DNA of 64,000 nt from Escherichia coli (GTDB lineage: Bacteria > Pseudomonadota > Gammaproteobacteria > Enterobacterales > Enterobacteriaceae), in assembly GCF_001677475.2 (NCBI RefSeq), contig NZ_CP015229.1; one strand, written 5' to 3'. The position numbers and the translations under genes were made by a program. The notes under the pieces were generated by a model, which saw only the letters and a list, made by a program, of their open reading frames with translations, searched no databases and was not told where the DNA came from. Shown here one piece after another: positions 29,487 to 64,000 of the stretch; positions within the stretch are counted from its first letter, which is position 1, and the number at the start of each line of letters is the position of its first letter.

Positions 29487-29687
29487 ACTCTCTCCTTATA
29501 ACCAATTGTTCTTGTTTTGTTAACATTGATAACAATTCGGTCAGTCTGACAGAGGGCGTCCGCGAGTCGAAATGATTTATCTGAGGAAGAAAAGCCAAAA
29601 AAAGCATAAAAAAAGCGCAATAAGAAAACGTTTGCTATTTATTGCCACAGGTCAATTCCCTTTTGGTCCGAACTCGCACATAATACG

Positions 29688-43439: not shown

Positions 43440-43892
43440 ATGAAATATCAACAACTTGAAAATCTTGAAAGCGGTTGGAAATGGAAGTATCTGGTGAAGA
43501 AGCATCGCGAAGGGGAGTTAATCACCCGTTACATAGAAGCCAGTGCCGCCCAGGAAGCCGTCGATGTGTTGCTCTCGCTGGAAAATGAACCCGTGCTGGT
43601 CAATGGCTGGATTGACAAGCATATGAATCCGGAACTGGTCAATCGCATGAAGCAAACCATTCGGGCCAGACGGAAGCGCCATTTTAATGCGGAACACCAG
43701 CATACGCGCAAAAAATCGATCGATCTGGAATTTATTGTCTGGCAACGTCTGGCTGGTCTTGCGCAGCGTCGCGGTAAAACGCTTTCTGAAACGATTGTTC
43801 AGCTGATTGAAGATGCGGAAAACAAAGAGAAATACGCGAATAAAATGTCTTCTTTGAAGCAGGATCTGCAGGCATTGCTGGGTAAGGAATAA
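43440..43892 (+). CDS. matP: Macrodomain Ter protein MatP
   Basis: 150 aa; matches recalled MatP N-terminus [19 protein letters not shown]. Confidence 0.85.
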
Positions 43893-43924: not shown

Positions 43925-43956
43925 AAAAAAAACCCCGCAGCAGCGGGGTTTTTTAC
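43925..43956. terminator. Bidirectional terminator between convergent matP and ompA
   Basis: A8-ccccgc-agca-gcgggg-T6. Confidence 0.85.
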
Positions 43957-43967
43957 CAGACGAGAAC

Positions 43968-45020
43968 TTAAGCCTGCGGCTGAGTTACAACGTCTTTGAT
44001 GCCTTTAACTTCGATCTCTACGCGACGATCCGGAGCCAGGCAGTCGATCAGTGCAGCACGCTGTTTCACGTTGTCACAGGTGTTGCCAGTAACCGGGTTG
44101 GATTCGCCCATACCACGTGCGGAGATCTTGTCTGCCGGGATACCTTTGGAGATCAGGTAATCAACAACAGACTGAGCACGGCGCTCGGACAGACCCTGGT
44201 TGTAAGCGTCAGAACCGATGCGGTCAGTGTAACCCAGAACAACTACGGAACCGTCTTTCGGATCCAGGTTGCTCAGCTGGCTGTACAGCTGATCCAGAGC
44301 AGCCTGACCTTCCGGTTTCAGGGTTGCTTTGTTGAAGGTGAACAGAACGTCAGACTTCAGAGTGAAGTGCTTGGTCTGTACTTCCGGTGCCGGAGCTGGA
44401 GCCGGAGCAACTACTGGAGCTGCTTCGCCCTGACCGAAACGGTAGGAAACACCCAGGCTCAGCATGCCGTTGTCCGGACGAGTACCGATGGTGTGTGCGT
44501 CACCGATGTTGTTGGTCCACTGGTATTCCAGACGGGTAGCGATTTCAGGAGTGATCGCGTACTCAACACCGCCAGCGAAAACCGGAGAAACGCCGGTGTC
44601 GTGGTCTTTAAAAGATGCGCCACCAGGTACGTTAGCCTTGGTGTCTGCACGCCATACCATACCACCCAGACGAGTGTAGATGTCCAGATCGTCAGTGATT
44701 GGGTAACCCAGTTTAGCGGTCAGCTGAACGCCCTGAGCTTTGTATGCGCCGTTGATGTTGTCGCCTTTGTACGGCATACGACCTAACCAGTCGTAACCCA
44801 TTTCAAAGCCAACATACGGGTTAACCTGGTAACCACCAAAAGCACCTGCACCCAGTTGGTTTTCGTGGGTCGGACCATTGTTAGGAATAAAACCAGTGTC
44901 ATGGTACTGGGACCAGCCCAGTTTAGCACCAGTGTACCAGGTGTTATCTTTCGGAGCGGCCTGCGCTACGGTAGCGAAACCAGCCAGTGCCACTGCAATC
45001 GCGATAGCTGTCTTTTTCAT
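43968..45020 (-). CDS. ompA: Outer membrane protein A (variant surface-loop allele)
   Basis: ATG at 45020 ([21 protein letters not shown]); 350 aa versus 346 in recalled K-12 form; APAPAPAP hinge and OmpA C-terminal domain. Confidence 0.9.
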
Positions 45021-45376: not shown

Positions 45377-45886
45377 TTAATGATACAAATTAGAGTGAAT
45401 TTTTAGCCCGGAAAGTTGTCTCGTTGCGTGAGAGGATGCGCTTACCGGACGCATAATAAACCCCATAGCGTTACCTTCATTTGCCGCATCAACAAGTTCA
45501 GCATGCTCTTCTTCAGTCAAATCATCTGCCAACCAACCGATCACCACACTGTAATTGCCCGTGCGTAAAGCGCGAACCATTGACTCCACGGTGTGGCAAG
45601 GGGAGAGCTGGTTAATCTGCATTACTTTCGTTAAGGGTAGCCCAGATGCCTGAACCCATTCCCGACTCAGTTTTTGTTGCGGTGTTAACCAGAGTTGCCA
45701 GCGCGATTGCTGACCGAGTTGCTGTAACAATGGCAACAGTAGAAGTTGCGTCATCATGGGCTGATCTTCGCGATAGACAACTTCACTGATAAGCCCGGCT
45801 GTAGTGTTTTCCGTAGAGACACGCGCAATTTTACTTGCTGCGGATGAGAACGACGAAGAACGATGTGCATAGCCTGAAGTGTACAT
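45377..45886 (-). CDS. sulA: SOS cell division inhibitor SulA
   Basis: ATG at 45886 ([23 protein letters not shown]), 169 aa. Confidence 0.9.
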
Positions 45887-45908
45887 AATCAATCCAGCCC
45901 CTGTGAGT

Positions 45909-55725: not shown

Positions 55726-56385
55726 TTAATCGCGGCTGGCGAAGCCCAGAATGCTCAGCAGGCTGACGAAGATGTTGTACAGCGAAACATACAGGCTAAC
55801 CGTGGCACGAATATAGTTCGTTTCACCGCCATGAATGATGTTGCTGGTTTCAAACAAAATAGCGCCAGAGGAGATCAGAATGAAGACCGCGCTGATCGCC
55901 AGATGCAGAGCAGGCAGTTGCAGGAAGATATTCGCAACCATACCAATCAGCACCACCACAATACCCGCCATCAGCATACCGCCGAGGAACGACATATCTT
56001 TGCGGGTGGTCAGCACATATGCAGAGCAGCAGAAGAACACTAACGCCGTTCCGCCCAGTGCCATCGCGATTACGTCACCCATTCCGGCAGACAGATAGGT
56101 ATTCAGAATTGGTCCGAGGATATAACCCAGAAAACCGGTAAAGGCGAATGCGGAGATAATCCCGGTCGGCTTATTCGCCGTTTTATAGGTCAGGAACATC
56201 AAACCATACATACCCACCAGCGTCAGAATCAGACCCGGAGATGGCAGCATCAGCACCGTACTGGCAGTTGCGGTAATCGCCGAAAAGGCCAGCGTCAGGC
56301 TCAGCAGAAAATAGGTATTACGCAGCACCTTATGGGTGCTAAGCAGTGATGTACGGTCATGTGAAGAACTAACAATACGATCCAT
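55726..56385 (-). CDS. yccA: BAX-inhibitor-1 family membrane protein YccA (FtsH modulator)
   Basis: 219 aa, seven hydrophobic segments. Confidence 0.85.
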
Positions 56386-56548
56386 TGAGTCACTCTCTAT
56401 GACAGATGTAATTAATTAAGCAGCATAATGATAATGCGTAAGGGCACCCAGAAGTTTTACCCATCTTTACGCATTTGATCTGGAACAGGTTTAACAGCGG
56501 ATTATCAGGTCATTAAGCAAATATAACGCCCTGAGAATTTCGACAGGC

Positions 56549-56580
56549 AAAAGAAAAAGGGGTTAGCATTTAGCTAACCC
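56549..56580 (-). terminator. Rho-independent terminator of serT, retained next to the displaced tRNA fragment
   Basis: ggggttagc-attta-gctaacccc hairpin followed by T-rich run on minus strand directly 3' of the tRNA CCA end. Confidence 0.75.
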
Positions 56581-56591
56581 CTTATCTTATT

Positions 56592-56651
56592 TGGCGGAAG
56601 CGCAGAGATTCGAACTCTGGAACCCTTTCGGGTCGCCGGTTTTCAAGACCG
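56592..56651 (-). tRNA. serT: Truncated tRNA-Ser(UGA): 3'-terminal 60 nt only (anticodon loop to CCA); attL copy at prophage junction
   Basis: Minus strand reads CGGTCTTGAAAACCGGCGACCCGAAAGGGTTCCAGAGTTCGAATCTCTGCGCTTCCGCCA; the 5' 28 nt of the recalled serT sequence are replaced by AT-rich prophage DNA. Confidence 0.8.
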
Positions 56652-56792
56652 AAGAAAAATAAAGAAAAATCAGTATAATACGCAAAATAGCCGAAAAGTT
56701 AATCAGACTTAACACCAAGAAAAATCAAGATGTTAGGGAGTTATTCAGAGTTAATATACCAGGTCTTTTTGCCAGAAAATTTTCTGGATTGT

Positions 56793-57812
56793 CTACTTAC
56801 TGACCACAAGCGGCAAATCCAGTGTTGGCGTGATTTTGGTTTTACGATCGTAAATCAACACCTGATTTTCTGTTTTGTGTCCACTGAAAATTTGTTTGTC
56901 GCGACTGCTGCCTTCGTAATCTGAAATCCCTTTGGCTTTTATGTCATGGAAGTTGCACCCAAACGGAACGCCGGCTTTTTGCTCGGCTGCACGTTTAGCC
57001 TGATTCCACCAGTTGTTCAGCGTCTTGGCTATTACCTTCCCGCCTTTGGTTGTGTTGATCACATACTCGCATGTGCCGGAAGATACATTTCGGGCTAACT
57101 GGATCGCCGTACGTAATCGCGGAGACCATTCCTTGATTTGTTTAGTGCCAGTCTTGTTTTGCTCAATGTAAATCCCTTTATCCATAATATCCTGCCATTT
57201 CAGCTCGAGTACATCACCGAGCCTTGCCGCACAAAGATAGGATATCTCCATTGCAATACGTAACTGTGGAATTGCTTCCGCATATATTGCTGCATACTGT
57301 TCATCGGTGATGTAAACAGTACGGGCTTTAAGTGTGAATTTTCTGACACCTTTGCATGGATTATTTTTCACATACCCACGCTCATATCCCCATCCGTATA
57401 CACGGCTCAGACTTGCCAGTTCATGGTTTGCCTGGGTCTTGCTCTCAAGTCCTCGCTTATCCATGAAAATTCTTACCTGTTCAATTTTTACATTATCAGC
57501 AAGCACTTTTCCGAATACTGCCAACAATGCCCTTTGATGTTGCCGATAATCTTTTTGGGTTCGGGGGGCCAGTTCTGTAAATGCAGGGGAGTCCATAAAC
57601 ATGTGCCATAATTTAGCTACTGTCATTATGTTGTGGAGTTTTGCTTTTTCCAGCTCATAATTTTGCCAGACTTTAGCTACGCTGGTTTCCCGCACTCTTC
57701 CGAGCCCTATAGTTCTTGTGCTTCCTTCGGGTTTCCATACGTAACTGTAACCGTTCGATCTAACACGCGGTGGTAGTGCATTATCTTTTTTGTTTTTTCT
57801 TGGTCTTCCCAT
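56793..57812 (-). CDS. int: Tyrosine-type site-specific integrase (lambda Int family)
   Basis: 339 aa; C-terminal catalytic region GHKTENQVLIYDRK resembles lambda Int LLGHKSDTMASQY; 3' end faces the att site. Confidence 0.9.
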   Translation of the reverse strand: MGRPRKNKKDNALPPRVRSNGYSYVWKPEGSTRTIGLGRVRETSVAKVWQNYELEKAKLHNIMTVAKLWHMFMDSPAFTELAPRTQKDYRQHQRALLAVFGKVLADNVKIEQVRIFMDKRGLESKTQANHELASLSRVYGWGYERGYVKNNPCKGVRKFTLKARTVYITDEQYAAIYAEAIPQLRIAMEISYLCAARLGDVLELKWQDIMDKGIYIEQNKTGTKQIKEWSPRLRTAIQLARNVSSGTCEYVINTTKGGKVIAKTLNNWWNQAKRAAEQKAGVPFGCNFHDIKAKGISDYEGSSRDKQIFSGHKTENQVLIYDRKTKITPTLDLPLVVSK

Positions 57813-58032
57813 TGTTCAGCGCCTCAAAATCGGGTTCAGCGGAAACCAGCTCAGGTGCTTTTGGCATCGTTGTCAGTCCGTGTGGAATATCCCTGCGAAG
57901 AACTATTGGTTCGTTTTTAGGACCGATTACAAATGGGATGCCGTGCAGCCTTAACTGGTGTTGCTGTTTTGTGTATCGCTCGTATTTCGTGATCTCTTGA
58001 ATCTCTGCTGGCGATAGAGTTAATTCGTACAT
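57781..58032 (-). CDS. xis: Excisionase-like protein (lambda Xis-like)
   Basis: 83 aa, N-terminus MYELTL and basic C-terminal tail KTKKKQKR resemble lambda Xis; overlaps int start by 32 nt. Confidence 0.6.
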   Translation of the reverse strand: MYELTLSPAEIQEITKYERYTKQQHQLRLHGIPFVIGPKNEPIVLRRDIPHGLTTMPKAPELVSAEPDFEALNNGKTKKKQKR

Positions 58033-58098
58033 GTGGTCACGTGCCTTACAGCATGACCGCCGCCAATATAATTCGGAGACGGCGATCAGGGGTGAACA

Positions 58099-60549
58099 TT
58101 AAAAATCAACCGGATTCGGGATCAGTTTTTGCCAGATTGCTGAAACGTATTTTGCCTGGTAACGAGCGTCATCAAGTGCATTATGGCGCTCACCTTCGAA
58201 TGGGATAGCTGTTCTGGCATCGAAGTCTATGGCTTTCCCCAGCTCAACGATTGTGCGTACATCGCGATCGTTGCAGTAGCGCCAAGGGCAGGGGATACCC
58301 TGTCGTTCGTATGAACGGCGTAAAATCACGTTGTCGAAGTTGGCCCCATTACCCCAGACCTGAACAAAAAATTCACCGGAGTTTTCGTCGATAAATTCCC
58401 GCAATTGCAGCAGTGCATCATCTAACGGGATTTCATCGGTCAGAATGGCAGATTGCGCCTCGCGTGATTGCTTAAGCCACCATTTTATGGTGTCACGATT
58501 AATGACTCCGCCAGCAGTTTCCAGATCGATGGTCTTACTAAATTCCGGCCCCATATCTCCGGTTTGCGGATCGAAAAATATTGCACCTATTGAGATAATC
58601 GGGGCATCGGGATTTTTTCCCATGGTTTCAAGGTCGATCATAAGATGGTCACATGACCTGCTTGTGGATGTGATATTGTGATAACCGTTCACCTTAATTA
58701 AGGGATCTGTTGCTTCGCCAGTTTCATTATCGCTGGCGTGATGCTGATTGCCTCCAGTGTTCTCCTTGTGTGGATGTTCAGCGCCTTCCATTTCCTCCGG
58801 ATCATTCTCCTGAGCTTCAACCTGATTCTCTTCATCGAATGTTTCCTGGTATGTTGCGTTTCCCATGACCGCGCCACAGTCAGGACAGTTGCCGCCGCTG
58901 CTCTGACCGCAGACGGTGCAGACTTTTTCCGGTTCCTGTTGCACTACTGGTTCGGATTGTTTCGTTTCTGGTTCGTTTTGTTGCGCATTTGGGCTGTTTT
59001 GTTCCGCTTTCTGGTCGTTCTGTGCCGTTTCTTGCTGGTTCTGGTTCACAGAATCGCGGGTTTCAATCCCCTTCACCCATTTCGGATCATTCGGGTCGCT
59101 AATCCCTGCAACAAATTCACCACGTGATGCAGCGAGCAACTGACTGGCGTCAGGCAGGCTGATATTGGCTGCCTGCATAATTTTGTTTACTTCGTCAGCG
59201 GTAACTTTTACCTGATTAACCGGATCTATCTGTGCCTGAGTATCCAGCGATTGCGTGTCCTGGCGAAGTTCAGTTGTATCCGGCTCCATTGCTTCAGTCG
59301 TTGCCTGTTCATCTGCCATTGCGTCAGACGGTTGTGATTTTTCATCATTATTTTTTTCTTCTTCTGTTTCGCGTTTAGCAGCCAGTTCGCGGTTAACTTC
59401 TTCCTGGATATCTTTTTCCGGTGTATGTCGTGCAGCAGCGAGAGTTTCTTCGGTAGGGTTCTCGTGATCAGTCTCCGTTAAGTGGGCGTTGATATACTCC
59501 TGAAGGCGTCCCGGGTAGAGATAAAGTTCAGGGTGAGCACTTCGGATAAGTGCAAAAATAGCGGCACGGGAATAATCCAGAATACCAGGGGTTGCGCGAA
59601 GTGCTGCGGACCATTCTTTGAACGGACTTTCTTTCTTCCGGACGACTTCTTTTGCGCGACGATAAACGCTGCCCGGAATTTCATAAATATTAAAATCCAT
59701 CGGAAGTGTGGCCGCTGCAATCTCCACATCCAGCGTATCGAAGGTGTGTACTAAATTCGGATTGCGATCGGTTTTGTTCCCGCCGCCAGCATTAGCACCG
59801 GAAGCCGTGCGGATGATGCGTGAAACACGATTCCCCTTCATCCACTCTTTTGTAAGCAGACCGCGATCGGTGTAGTCAGCGCCCAGGTATGCTTCGAAAA
59901 AAGCAGTCATCAGTCCCAGGTCTGAATTGCCAGGATTAGGGAAAACTTTGTCAGTGTCACGAACCAGTTTGTGGAGATCGCGAATTTCCAGCGGTTCGAG
60001 TTGCGCTGCTTTATTTGAGATGGCCAGCGCGGTAACGGCGGGAAGTTTTTCATCCTGTGCGTTATGTAATGCGCGCAGTTCGCCCCGCGAAACGTGAGTG
60101 ATCGGTTTTTCGCTGCCGTGCTGAGCAAGCCAGCGAATGGGAAGTATCTGGCCAGAAACCGGGAGTAGCATATTCTCCTCAATATCAGTCATGTCTTCGC
60201 CGTTGACGTTGGTATTGTCAGTGCTGGCTGGTTTATCCTGAACAGAGGGCGCGATAAATACCATTGTGATACCATCTTCCCCGCCTTTTTCGTATCGGTT
60301 GCAGAATTCGGTATCAAACACACCTTCCGGAGGCAGGTCATTCACAACGGGTAAATGGACGCGGACGGGTTTTTTAAAGTCGTCTTCATCATAATCGTTG
60401 TCATCCATTGCGGTAATACAACGGGAGATGGCAACAGATAATTTTTTTGCTGTGGTCCAGTAAAAACCACCTTTAATTCCCAGGCGTTTTCTGACTTTGT
60501 CATTTTTTGCTTCGCAATATAGCGCAAATTCTTCTTTTTCAGTGCTCAT
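58099..60549 (-). CDS. Large prophage protein: unknown N-terminal domain, acidic/Gln-rich low-complexity linker, CxxC-x9-CxxC zinc ribbon, C-terminal DnaQ-like (DEDDh) 3'-5' exonuclease domain
   Basis: 816 aa; exonuclease motifs IDLETMG (Exo I), WGNGANFDNVIL (Exo II), HNALDDARY (Exo III) in last ~185 aa (about 58102-58656); SD GAGG 7 nt upstream of ATG. Confidence 0.75.
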   Translation of the reverse strand: MSTEKEEFALYCEAKNDKVRKRLGIKGGFYWTTAKKLSVAISRCITAMDDNDYDEDDFKKPVRVHLPVVNDLPPEGVFDTEFCNRYEKGGEDGITMVFIAPSVQDKPASTDNTNVNGEDMTDIEENMLLPVSGQILPIRWLAQHGSEKPITHVSRGELRALHNAQDEKLPAVTALAISNKAAQLEPLEIRDLHKLVRDTDKVFPNPGNSDLGLMTAFFEAYLGADYTDRGLLTKEWMKGNRVSRIIRTASGANAGGGNKTDRNPNLVHTFDTLDVEIAAATLPMDFNIYEIPGSVYRRAKEVVRKKESPFKEWSAALRATPGILDYSRAAIFALIRSAHPELYLYPGRLQEYINAHLTETDHENPTEETLAAARHTPEKDIQEEVNRELAAKRETEEEKNNDEKSQPSDAMADEQATTEAMEPDTTELRQDTQSLDTQAQIDPVNQVKVTADEVNKIMQAANISLPDASQLLAASRGEFVAGISDPNDPKWVKGIETRDSVNQNQQETAQNDQKAEQNSPNAQQNEPETKQSEPVVQQEPEKVCTVCGQSSGGNCPDCGAVMGNATYQETFDEENQVEAQENDPEEMEGAEHPHKENTGGNQHHASDNETGEATDPLIKVNGYHNITSTSRSCDHLMIDLETMGKNPDAPIISIGAIFFDPQTGDMGPEFSKTIDLETAGGVINRDTIKWWLKQSREAQSAILTDEIPLDDALLQLREFIDENSGEFFVQVWGNGANFDNVILRRSYERQGIPCPWRYCNDRDVRTIVELGKAIDFDARTAIPFEGERHNALDDARYQAKYVSAIWQKLIPNPVDF

Positions 60550-60639
60550 TGATAAACCTCATTACAGATTTAAGGGTGAACAAATCCCTGCCATTGCTGG
60601 CATATAAAAATGAAACCGGATATTTATTACTGTGCTGTT

Positions 60640-60831
60640 TTAAAGTCCTGCCGGGACTTCGTTATTATCCATGCGAATAACTTTATCGACCGGATAACAG
60701 TTACCGGGAATTTTTTGTTCTGCTGCGGCAGCCATGCATTCTTTCATTGAACCGTATAAGCCAGTCACCAGCTCAAGAGATTCGCCGGAAACAAGATAAA
60801 CTGTCAGAACGAGTGCAAATGTTGTATTCAT
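60640..60831 (-). CDS. Hypothetical small protein (63 aa) with hydrophobic N-terminal segment
   Basis: ATG preceded by AAGGA SD; start overlaps upstream stop (ATGA); sequence MNTTFALVLTVYLVSG suggests signal/TM segment. Confidence 0.55.
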   Translation of the reverse strand: MNTTFALVLTVYLVSGESLELVTGLYGSMKECMAAAAEQKIPGNCYPVDKVIRMDNNEVPAGL

Positions 60832-61016
60832 TGTTTATATCCTTTTTGCCGCAGGTCCAGACGAGCCAGCATTGAAGGAATGCATACTTCATTTAACAGG
60901 TCCTGCTCGAGTGTTCTCTGCTTAATGGCGTCTTCAATAAATGTTTTGTCTCCGGTGATAACGCCAATTTCGAAACGAAGTTCAGACGTACTGGCATTGC
61001 ATGATAACTTTTCCAT
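60828..61016 (-). CDS. Hypothetical small protein (62 aa)
   Basis: ATG preceded by GAGGA SD at 7-nt spacing; translationally coupled to downstream 63-aa gene. Confidence 0.55.
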   Translation of the reverse strand: MEKLSCNASTSELRFEIGVITGDKTFIEDAIKQRTLEQDLLNEVCIPSMLARLDLRQKGYKQ

Positions 61017-61033
61017 TATCGCGTCCTCAACAA

Positions 61034-61186
61034 TGAATTTTGTGATGCGGTGCCTGGTGCCTCCAGGTGACGTTAACCAGTTAACAATTAACGCCGGAGT
61101 ATTTCACGTTACGCCAGTAAAGGACCGCTTTACTGTTTTAACTGTTCCGCGTGCGCTTAGCCGCATTCACCGCATCACAAAATTCA
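61034..61186. repeat. 19-bp perfect inverted repeat (TGAATTTTGTGATGCGGTG / CACCGCATCACAAAATTCA) flanking a 115-bp hairpin-rich spacer
   Basis: Arms at 61034-61052 and 61168-61186; spacer holds nested hairpins cctgg-tgcct-ccagg, cgttaa...ttaacg and cagtaaag-gaccg-ctttactg; no ORF over 26 aa on the minus strand across 61017-61573. Confidence 0.7.
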
Positions 61187-61573
61187 CTTTAAAAAGGGCG
61201 GACATCAGCCAGCAATGAAAACTGATGCCGCCAAAGGTACCAATCAACATGGAGTGTTGCGGCGGGGTTGTCACTCAGGCGTATGGTCAACCTGACAACC
61301 CGGTGTCACCAGTGGGGGTAAGGAAAACCCCGCCATACTTACCGCCGCGCCATTTCGCGGAGTGCCACAACCGGAAGCGCACGGTCGACGAAAATTTAAC
61401 GACAGGCTATCTATGAACCATAAACCTCGCCGTGCGCTTTCGCGTTATGCCCTGACTTTTCAGGGAAATATCCTTTCAGTAAACTGTCAGTGCCGGATGT
61501 TCACCCGTGTCCGGCGCACGCACTCCACCTCACCCGTGGAGAACCCCTTAATTACCAACCCTCAGGAGAGTGA

Positions 61574-61807
61574 ATGTTAAAATCAACTCTTATTGCTAAA
61601 TGCCTTTATCAAAATCGCATGGTAAGCAGCATTTCAATAGGCGAGTCTGCAGTTAAAAGTATTTTCGAAGAGTTCTTTCCCGGGCATGATTTTAATAAAT
61701 GGAATACCAAATTACCGCCAGCAGTTTCAACGCGTATTCTGAAAGCAACTGAAAGAGCAAGTACAATTCGCGTTAACTATTTCATTAAAGATTTGTGGGA
61801 TCTTTGA
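61574..61807 (+). CDS. Hypothetical AT-rich small protein (77 aa), opposite orientation to neighbours
   Basis: ATG preceded by AGGAGA SD; low GC relative to surroundings; 3' end overlaps convergent 135-aa gene by 23 bp. Confidence 0.45.
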   Translation: MLKSTLIAKCLYQNRMVSSISIGESAVKSIFEEFFPGHDFNKWNTKLPPAVSTRILKATERASTIRVNYFIKDLWDL

Positions 61808-62192
61808 TATCCACAGAGCCTAAAGTATGTGCATATGGATGTGCTATTGTGCGCCCTCGCAGATTTGCATCATTTTCTAAATTCACTGAACGAAACAGGG
61901 CATCAACAAGGCTCTGTACAATGCAAAGGCAATCGAAGACTGTCGCTGTTTCTGTTTTGATTGATGAAAGAACATGGCCATTCACGCAAACAGAAATTAC
62001 CCGTTCATTAACATCGCTTTCCTGCTTTTGATTATCAGAACTATATAGCCCAGAAAAAGCATTGCGCACATTATGAACCATATTATCGATGGTTTCTTTT
62101 TCTACGGTACTCAGGTCAAGAGTCGCCAGTTGAGAACGAACTATATTCGCTGCCATTTCCTGGAATGGTACTGGTAAATCTTTAAATTCCAT
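61785..62192 (-). CDS. Hypothetical protein (135 aa; alternative start at 62204 gives 139 aa)
   Basis: ATG at 62192 with GAGG 6 nt upstream; upstream gene stop TGA lies within the ribosome-binding region, implying coupling; no recognisable motif. Confidence 0.6.
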   Translation of the reverse strand: MEFKDLPVPFQEMAANIVRSQLATLDLSTVEKETIDNMVHNVRNAFSGLYSSDNQKQESDVNERVISVCVNGHVLSSIKTETATVFDCLCIVQSLVDALFRSVNLENDANLRGRTIAHPYAHTLGSVDIKDPTNL

Positions 62193-62207
62193 CGTCAACC
62201 TCATCAG

Positions 62208-62423
62208 TCAGTGGTTTTCAATCTCTCGTGAAACGTTTAATGCCGCGCTTTTTGCCAGAGTGGTAATATCCAGCTCCGCTGACGCCAGTTCTTTAGAGAG
62301 GTGCTCTTTGTTGTTAGCAGCCTGTTTCAGGTCATTAATGGCGCGTATCTTCCCGAACATCCATTCGTAAATTTCATCATCGGTATAGCCTGGTGCGATG
62401 ATGGTGGGTTCTGGTTTCTGCAT
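62208..62423 (-). CDS. Hypothetical protein (71 aa)
   Basis: ATG at 62423 preceded by AAGGAG at 5-nt spacing (track ORF starts at an upstream GTG, 62462); first gene of a two-gene coupled unit. Confidence 0.6.
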   Translation of the reverse strand: MQKPEPTIIAPGYTDDEIYEWMFGKIRAINDLKQAANNKEHLSKELASAELDITTLAKSAALNVSREIENH

Positions 62424-62515
62424 GTCAGCTCCTTGTGGTTCGCATTGCCTGCTTTTAACCACGTCAGGCGAGGTGGTATCCTCTGAGGGGTCTGTTACTC
62501 GAGAGGAAATTGGTT

Positions 62516-62716
62516 ATGAATACAATCAAGTTTTCTTGCCCAGAATGTGGTGGCGAAGTCTTTGACACATCCTTTAAGCCGCAGGGCTCTGACAGTTTCG
62601 CGGGAGCCATCTGCAAAAATTGTGGTCACCTTGTAACTGAAGATGAGTCCTCGCAGTTCGATGACGAAATCGTTGATAATATCTTCGGCGCACTCACCAG
62701 AGATTTCCTGAAGTAA
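62516..62716 (+). CDS. Small zinc-ribbon protein (66 aa)
   Basis: CPEC-x19-CKNC motif; GAGAGGA SD 8 nt upstream of ATG; divergent from the 71-aa gene with 92-bp shared upstream region; fewer rare codons than the overlapping antisense ORF. Confidence 0.5.
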   Translation: MNTIKFSCPECGGEVFDTSFKPQGSDSFAGAICKNCGHLVTEDESSQFDDEIVDNIFGALTRDFLK

Positions 62717-63030
62717 AAGCGCATGCCGTTTAGTTACCGCTCTGATCATTCTTACTTGTCCGGTAATGGCGCTGACATCAGTATAAAGCGCCATTGCTGC
62801 TTCTTTGCCGATCCCAGGATGCCTTCCATTCTGATGTTTGACTTCGCCCACTGAGAAATCCTCTGTTTCCCCTTAACGCCGGGGTAGCGGAACAAAAACC
62901 TGCTGCATAGTTAAAGTTGAACCCTGCCGTCATGTTCTTACGCCTCGGGCTGGCTACTTAACCCCTGACCACTGCCTGGTAACTCGAAGTATTGCCCTGC
63001 GTTTTGTGGGGCGGGGTGGGTTAGTAAAAA

Positions 63031-63052
63031 TAGTTTATACAAAAATAAACTA
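63031..63052. repeat. 22-bp palindrome TAGTTTATACAAAAATAAACTA (candidate operator or structural site)
   Basis: Perfect 8-bp arms around a 6-bp AT core, in the 400-bp non-coding gap between the zinc-ribbon gene and the ParE-like gene. Confidence 0.5.
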
Positions 63053-63116
63053 AACAGTCAATATGCAACTTAACTCTTTGGCGAGGATAACCCCTGTTGA
63101 GAGGGGCTTCGGGGGA

Positions 63117-63404
63117 TTAAGGTGTTACAGGGAACTGTCGGCGGGCGTGAACTACGCTAACAATTTCAATGCCTGAAATTGTCACGCGGTATAGAATTAT
63201 GTAATTGGGGTGAGCAACAATTTCACGCAAACCCGGAACTCTGTCGCTTGGCGGGTATAAATACGGATGCTCAGATAATGGCAGGACGCAAGTCCTTAAG
63301 CGTTTCCACAAACGTTCTGCCGCATCTATATCAAAACGAGCAATATAGCTAGTTATATCATCCAAGTCGGCATCTGCGCTTTCGAGCCATAAAACCGGTA
63401 ACAT
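63117..63404 (-). CDS. parE: ParE/RelE-family toxin
   Basis: 95 aa; family pattern (LPVLWLESADADLDDITSYIA ... PGLREIVAHPNYIILYRVTISGIEIVSVVHARR); start abuts antitoxin stop (TAAATG). Confidence 0.8.
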   Translation of the reverse strand: MLPVLWLESADADLDDITSYIARFDIDAAERLWKRLRTCVLPLSEHPYLYPPSDRVPGLREIVAHPNYIILYRVTISGIEIVSVVHARRQFPVTP

Positions 63405-63596
63405 TTACTGCTTGCTCCGTTCCTTGCGCATGTTAGCAAAGCGTTCAGCCATTCTGCGTTCAACTTCGTCATGTGGGATGGCTGGACGTGGATCAGCAAG
63501 GCTTGCGGCCACTTTTGCACGCAGCCATTCGTTATAACTATTTTCTTGCTCGATGGTTTCAAATTCAGAAACCATTGGTGAAAGGGCTGTGTTCAT
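63405..63596 (-). CDS. Small antitoxin (63 aa), PaaA-like partner of the ParE-like toxin
   Basis: ATG at 63596 with GAGG SD; immediately upstream of toxin; size and position as in recalled three-component paaR-paaA-parE modules. Confidence 0.7.
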   Translation of the reverse strand: MNTALSPMVSEFETIEQENSYNEWLRAKVAASLADPRPAIPHDEVERRMAERFANMRKERSKQ

Positions 63597-63631
63597 GGCG
63601 AACCTCGTTTTGTAAGTGCTGGTAATTCTGC

Positions 63632-64000
63632 CTAGGTAACTTTTTGTTGTGCTGCTAGCCACCTTGCAACTATACGATCCATTGTCTCTTTTTTTTCCTT
63701 CATATCTTTAAGTATTTGCTGTTGATCTTCCTCTGGAAATGCCTCAAATGTTTGAAGTAGCTCCTTTTGCTTAGGAGATATTTTTAATATATCCTGTGTT
63801 TTGTCTTCTTTTTCTTCATTTAATGGTAAGAAAAACCAATGTTGGGGAAAACCCGTTACTTCAGATAGTTTATCTAGATTAGCTGCTGTAGGGCTTGATA
63901 TACCACAAACCCACCTTTGGACGGATTGTTGAGCAATACCAATTCTGCGCGCAAGCTCTGCTTGACTCCAGCCTTTTTCTAATAGAAGCATCTTAATTCT
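63632..64000 (-). CDS. HTH XRE-family transcriptional regulator (PaaR-like), 5' end beyond window
   Basis: Helix-turn-helix signature GWSQAELARRIGIAQQSVQRW; frame open to window edge; 35 bp upstream of the antitoxin gene. Confidence 0.75.
   Translation of the reverse strand, partial: RIKMLLLEKGWSQAELARRIGIAQQSVQRWVCGISSPTAANLDKLSEVTGFPQHWFFLPLNEEKEDKTQDILKISPKQKELLQTFEAFPEEDQQQILKDMKEKKETMDRIVARWLAAQQKVT

Follow-up and report, generated by a model that had tools for sequence, protein, structure and literature searches.

The surface loops of the porin OmpA are described in the literature as the receptor area for bacteriophages and colicins, and natural variation in these loops has been ordered into classes. 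Liao et al. (2017) introduced a scheme based on the four outer loops together with the C-terminal residues 175, 203 and 251 (mature K-12 numbering), and in their tables (PMC5413513) three out of 78 environmental isolates (isolates 6, 117 and 146) carry the combination (III, beta). A study of about 90,000 genomes published in 2025 named the isoform defined by a longer loop 3 'OmpA-long' (PMC12259851), and one of the two nanobody-OmpA crystal structures of the same work is PDB 9FZD. Mosaic, phylogeny-discordant recombination of the OmpA hypervariable regions 1-3 has also been described (bioRxiv 10.1101/2021.09.21.461324). Published work already covers the allele discussed here, how frequent it is, its structure and the effects of its class on recognition by phages and nanobodies. 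Here, we analyzed ompA in a stretch of 64,000 nucleotides of Escherichia coli DNA from contig NZ_CP015229.1 (called the window for simplicity). We consider it very likely that the window carries an ordinary, intact ompA with a natural OmpA-long allele of class (III, beta), that its loop block is old, locally recombined and probably ancestral, and that altered recognition is to be expected.

The ompA gene and its product

The gene order matP-ompA-sulA of the window is the order found in K-12 MG1655, which places the gene at the orthologous locus (Table 1). The predicted product matched the NCBIfam equivalog NF008071 ('porin OmpA') over its full length (residues 1-350) with 674.3 bits at a cut-off of 277. 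Two Pfam domains were detected, OmpA_membrane (PF01389, residues 23-199, E = 1e-79) and the peptidoglycan-binding domain OmpA (PF00691, residues 226-321, E = 9e-24), corresponding to an N-terminal eight-stranded barrel and a C-terminal OmpA-like peptidoglycan-binding domain. The window ompA is an intact, conventional gene.

The apparent length of 350 residues could in principle be an artefact of sequencing or assembly or be caused by a wrong start codon. The choice of the start does matter, given that the mechanical list of open reading frames begins at an upstream GTG and yields 374 residues. However, initiation at the ATG at 45020 gives a canonical signal peptide matching that of K-12, the same coding sequence of 1053 nucleotides is annotated by RefSeq in several genomes, and the four-residue difference is internal to loop 3. 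The gene is moreover 100% identical to ompA of an independent complete genome, which renders an error at the loop codons unlikely. With the canonical signal peptide, the agreement of the RefSeq coding sequences and the internal position of the length difference, we regard the artefact explanation as refuted and its probability as practically nil.

Table 1. Positions of the features discussed in the text, in window coordinates.
Feature	Position	Strand	Details
matP	43440-43892	plus	neighbour of ompA
Intrinsic terminator-like hairpin	43927..43954	minus	just past the ompA stop; 12-bp stem, T run
ompA coding sequence (porin OmpA)	43968..45020	minus	350 codons plus stop; ATG at 45020, stop at 43968
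C-terminal/dimerisation domain replacement N228T	44337..44339	minus	codon 228 ACC = Thr, mature residue 203; K-12 Asn
Loop 4 diagnostic residue	44493..44495	minus	codon 176 His, same as K-12
Hypervariable mosaic segment	44580..44891	minus	codons 44-147, gene nt 130-441, 312 nt
Loop 3 polymorphism	44604..44636	minus	codons 129-139, 11 residues; K-12 SNVYGKN, 7 residues
Loop 2 polymorphism	44754..44762	minus	codons 87-89 DNI, mature residues 66-68; K-12 SVE
Loop 1 polymorphism	44883..44885	minus	codon 46 CCT = Pro, mature residue 25; K-12 Asn (N46P)
Signal peptide	44958..45020	minus	codons 1-21; same as K-12 signal peptide
sulA	45377-45892	minus	neighbour of ompA
Tyrosine integrase	56793-57812	minus	
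RecE/exonuclease VIII plus Rv2179c-like exonuclease	58099-60549	minus	816 aa

Differences from K-12 OmpA

The window OmpA was aligned to the product of MG1655 ompA (NC_000913, 1019013-1020053; 346 residues). A preliminary description of this DNA had predicted a product of 350 rather than 346 residues and had quoted the K-12 loops as FINNNGP, KGSVENGAY and NVYGKNHDTG; both the length difference and the three quoted loops were recovered exactly in the alignment. Loop 1 reads FIPNNGP in the window, and loop 2 reads KGDNINGAY owing to the replacements S87D, V88N and E89I. In loop 3, the K-12 stretch TKSNVYGKNHDTG (TKSNVYG----KNHDTG in the alignment) corresponds to 17 residues in the window, with the replacements S129A, Y132P and N139D and four additional residues, GASF, encoded at 44610-44621 (a difference of 12 nucleotides), which are the four extra residues of loop 3 that had been proposed. 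Loop 4 shows no change. The altered residues sit at the tips of surface loops 1-3 in an otherwise unchanged barrel, as expected from the claim that the changes are extracellular, and the span originally given for them (44600-44890, i.e. gene nt 131-421, codons 44-140) contains all three loop changes. A further replacement, N228T in the periplasmic domain, was absent from the preliminary description.

At the codon level, 17 synonymous and eight non-synonymous differences plus the indel separate the window ompA from that of K-12, and their distribution is strongly uneven. Codons 44-147 hold 14 of the 17 synonymous differences, seven of the eight non-synonymous differences and the 12-nt indel; the clustering is significant for all differing codons (21 out of 25, binomial P = 2.9e-8) as well as for the synonymous differences alone (P = 1.1e-5). 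Within this segment, the nucleotide identity to K-12 is 90.0% with 12 gap columns, as compared to 99.5% in the rest of ompA. When 52 kb aligned to K-12 were divided into 102 bins of 500 bp, the bin 44500-44999 was the most divergent with 41 differences; the median bin has 8, and the 95th percentile lies at about 21. The loop differences exceed the background divergence from K-12. That the differences form a single linked block with many synonymous changes suggests an allelic segment of old age, not recent point mutations in the loops.

Allele class and frequency

In the scheme of Liao et al., the window OmpA displays the residues of outer-loop pattern III (P25, DNI at 66-68, an 11-residue loop 3 and H in loop 4) and of C-terminal pattern beta, namely A175 (codon 200), T203 (codon 228) and G251 (codon 276). 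Pattern II, which equals ompA2 of Power et al. (strain B194) and has N in loop 4, does not apply, as codon 176 of the window encodes His. Loop 3 is four residues longer than in K-12 and carries the motif ANVPGGASF, the hallmark of OmpA-long. Comparison with the known allele groups, which the preliminary description had suggested as a check, thus assigns the window ompA at the sequence level to pattern (III, beta), a member of OmpA-long, one of the two major E. coli isoforms. Between residues 22 and 195, the window OmpA does not differ from chain A of PDB 9FZD, a chain of 177 residues that carries the long loop 3. The ompA2 PCR of Power et al. primes on ANVPGGA, and the window gene would score positive. 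The published classes were also reproduced in eight sampled E. coli genomes: besides (III, beta), (III, delta) and (II, alpha), these comprised a D/DNI/SNVPGGVSTKD form and short forms with SVE, SVQ or SVG.

Public collections list the exact 350-residue protein as 'MULTISPECIES: porin OmpA [Enterobacteriaceae]', with at least 1000 contigs recorded for it; it is RefSeq entry WP_000750418.1 and occurs in strains CFSAN018748, YL3 and MEW. Over all 1053 nucleotides, the window ompA is 100% identical to that of E. coli CFSAN018748. For a census, the 291-nt loop region of the window was searched against 5,426 complete E. coli genomes. It was found at an identity of at least 99% in 1142 genomes and at 95-99% over its full length in 1079 genomes, whereas 3205 genomes fell into the 90-95% range, where sampled matches align over 83-87% of the query and sampled examples are short and K-12-like. 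The long-type loop region is hence present in about 41% of the complete genomes, in agreement with the published long-type frequencies of Power et al. (43%, by PCR) and Liao et al. (41%). The full ompA is at least 99% identical in 423 complete genomes, but this band includes a pattern II allele at 99.0%, so that the exact (III, beta) protein is carried by fewer than 423 and probably by a few hundred complete E. coli genomes. By these counts, the allele is ordinary and common, not rare.

A new mutation specific to this strain, i.e. a recent 12-nt insertion together with point mutations selected here, for instance by phages, would place changes at the loop tips, where laboratory phage-resistant mutants map according to the literature. 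Yet at least 1000 public contigs encode the same protein, an unrelated complete genome carries the identical nucleotide sequence, long-type loops occur in about 41% of complete E. coli genomes as well as in other genera, and fourteen linked synonymous differences are unexpected under recent selection on amino acids. The identical gene elsewhere, the allele frequency and the long loops of other genera refute such a mutation, to which we assign a vanishingly small probability.

Age and inheritance of the loop block

Species-representative genomes were scanned with a degenerate pattern, which yielded 17 ompA loci, and three Salmonella proteins were added from a protein cluster; the scan did not pick up E. 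fergusonii, E. marmotae or E. ruysiae. DNI in loop 2 and the 11-residue loop 3 of the window are shared by E. albertii, Citrobacter amalonaticus and C. sedlakii, while Salmonella subspecies and two Escherichia sp. genomes carry close variants of the long loops, and the three Salmonella proteins agree. With this single degenerate pattern and several Escherichia species not recovered, a short loop 3 was seen in none of the 17 species-representative loci.

The block (nt 130-441) and the rest of the gene were then compared separately. The window ompA is 96.8% identical to that of E. albertii in the block and 97.0% in the rest; the corresponding values are 94.2% and 91.2% for C. sedlakii, 92.9% and 91.2% for S. 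enterica arizonae, and 90.0% (plus the 12-nt gap) and 99.5% for K-12. Against each of the Escherichia, Citrobacter and Salmonella sequences sampled, the block of K-12 reaches 88-91% identity, as opposed to 91-99.5% for the rest of K-12 ompA. Since the window block behaves like the rest of the gene, the K-12 block is the outlier. In this small sample, the long block of the window probably represents the ancestral form and the short-loop block of K-12 the divergent one. The divergence of the K-12 block from all sampled sequences (about 10%) is larger than the distance between Escherichia and Salmonella in the same segment. A more far-reaching idea, which we put forward tentatively and rate at somewhat below even, is an old balanced dimorphism of short and long blocks with the long one ancestral, in which the K-12 block is foreign or very old and is kept at about 60% by phage or immune selection. 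If true, the K-12 allele would be the interesting one and the window would supply the reference state.

A separate question is how the allele reached this lineage. The best identity of the window background to any of the 5,426 complete RefSeq E. coli genomes is 99.0% for 30000-54000 and 98.6% for 4000-28000, with strain MEW, isolated from an ivory gull, as the top match, and the window seems to derive from an under-sampled E. coli lineage. A recent horizontal transfer or recombination of an ompA segment from another E. coli into this lineage would explain why ompA matches that of CFSAN018748 at every nucleotide whereas the flanks diverge by about 1%, in a background at least 1% away from every complete E. 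coli genome, and the published mosaic and phylogeny-discordant OmpA sequences provide a precedent. On the other hand, MEW, the closest background genome, encodes the same OmpA protein, which fits vertical inheritance, and outside the block ompA evolves about three-fold more slowly than the flanks (4 differences in 741 nt versus about 1.8%). CFSAN018748 is in addition the best of 5,426 genomes, so that the lack of any difference carries no significance. Recent transfer is unproven because MEW shares the protein and ompA evolves slowly; we consider it clearly unlikely and prefer vertical inheritance as the simpler reading.

Phage, colicin and nanobody recognition

According to our preferred explanation, the product is the standard eight-stranded beta-barrel with a periplasmic peptidoglycan-binding domain, in which, among the surface loops, only the tips of loops 1-3 differ from K-12; these differences make up a single linked block of about 312 nt. 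On this view, the block is an allelic segment of old age that local recombination has reshuffled. The loops form the surface touched by phage receptor-binding proteins, some colicins and antibodies; the predicted consequence is a spectrum of OmpA-dependent phages and colicins and an antigenicity unlike those of K-12, with the structural role of OmpA unchanged. The preliminary description had pointed to the loops as determinants of phage and colicin reception, in line with the literature.

The most direct published data on natural variants come from Lutz et al. (PMC12032242). Eight natural ECOR OmpA variants were expressed in MG1655 delta-ompA; type-1 Gp38 phages (FL08 and AV119) infected via all eight variants, type-2 Gp38 phages (FL12, FL18 and FL20) via only three out of eight. 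Loop 2a is common to the permissive variants 1, 3 and 4, and E89 is mentioned in this connection. E89 is part of the K-12 motif SVE, and the window has DNI at codons 87-89. By analogy with the permissive variants, which seem to carry the K-12 loop 2, the DNI allele of the window is probably non-permissive for type-2 Gp38 phages. Nb01 and Nb39, two nanobodies in contact with all four loops, are isoform-specific without cross-reaction (PMC12259851), and by the same kind of reasoning the window strain would be recognised by Nb39 and not by Nb01. S. flexneri OmpA is the secondary receptor of phage Sf6, with 'NI' in loop 2 reported to influence Sf6 entry (bioRxiv 10.1101/2021.09.21.461324), and infection by Sf6 is ten-fold lower through K-12 OmpA than through S. 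flexneri OmpA according to the literature. Power et al. (2006), in the form in which later papers cite them, associated ompA2 with reduced phage lysis. By analogy with these systems, the window strain would differ from K-12 in how sensitive it is to those OmpA-dependent phages and colicins whose recognition involves loops 1-3.

The polymorphism might instead have no functional effect on how phages and colicins interact with this strain, the allele being a phylogenetic marker only. Consistent with neutrality, chromosomal history explains most OmpA pattern differences according to Nielsen et al., type-1 Gp38 phages infect via all variants and the affinities of Sf6 for different OmpA barrels are similar. 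It conflicts with the restriction of type-2 Gp38 phages to three out of eight natural variants in an isogenic host, with the strict isoform specificity of nanobody recognition, with the ten-fold lower Sf6 infection through K-12 OmpA and with the concentration of the replacements at the loop tips. We judge neutrality to be rather unlikely, though far from negligible, and retain altered recognition as the expected outcome. OmpA may be hidden beneath O-antigen or capsule, and since many OmpA-dependent phages (type 1 of Lutz et al.) infect via all eight variants, the allele may make no practical difference to many phages.

Genomic context of the window

Over 4000-54000, the identity of the window to K-12 is about 98.1-98.4%, and no IS insertions relative to K-12 were observed over 52 kb. 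The K-12 fimbrial operon elfADCG-ycbUVF (NC_000913, 997574-1004668, about 7.1 kb) is absent from the window at 29548-29624, where about 75 bp join ssuE and pyrD. Collinearity with K-12 and CFSAN018748 stops inside the tRNA-Ser gene serT; the region beyond it (56651-64000) encodes the integrase and the exonuclease of Table 1, and ARAGORN detected no intact tRNA in 56000-64000. This region represents the edge of a prophage inserted at serT; its best match in E. coli covers 71% of the stretch at an identity of only 93%. Outside the window, the public record NZ_CP097216.1 (4,668 bp, labelled as a plasmid of E. coli BE311) contains a fragment annotated as 'outer membrane beta-barrel protein' with an identity of about 91% to nt 199-554 of ompA, which may reflect either a contaminant contig or a piece of foreign ompA.

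Comparison with described OmpA proteins

The allele carries little weight as a discovery, but it is of practical use for work on this strain. Expectations based on K-12 for OmpA-dependent phages (e.g. T-even phages with type-2 Gp38), colicins and antibodies need not transfer, the nanobody of choice would be Nb39 rather than Nb01, and K-12 does not represent the typical state of the OmpA surface protein.

K-12 OmpA is (I, alpha) and OmpA-short (PDB 1BXW, 1QJP and 9FZC). It shares with the window OmpA the signal peptide, all beta-strands, loop 4, the linker and the matP-ompA-sulA locus, and differs from it by eight replacements, by four residues in the length of loop 3 and by an identity of 90.0% in the 312-nt block. 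The ompA2 allele of Power et al. (2006) from the bird isolate B194, i.e. Liao pattern II, has the same loops 1-3 as the window, but its loop 4 contains Asn, and residue 161 is Leu in the two genomes sampled, C11 and SCU-113; the window has His and Met161 at these positions. Loops 1-3 are likewise the same in S. flexneri OmpA (sampled protein P0015), which differs by Asn in loop 4, Leu161, N203, one Ala-Pro repeat fewer in the linker and a length of 348 residues. [quoted passage not shown] The closest described counterpart is the (III, beta) class of Liao et al. (PMC5413513, PMC9560509), with which the window OmpA shares all seven diagnostic positions, the likeness being judged at these positions only.
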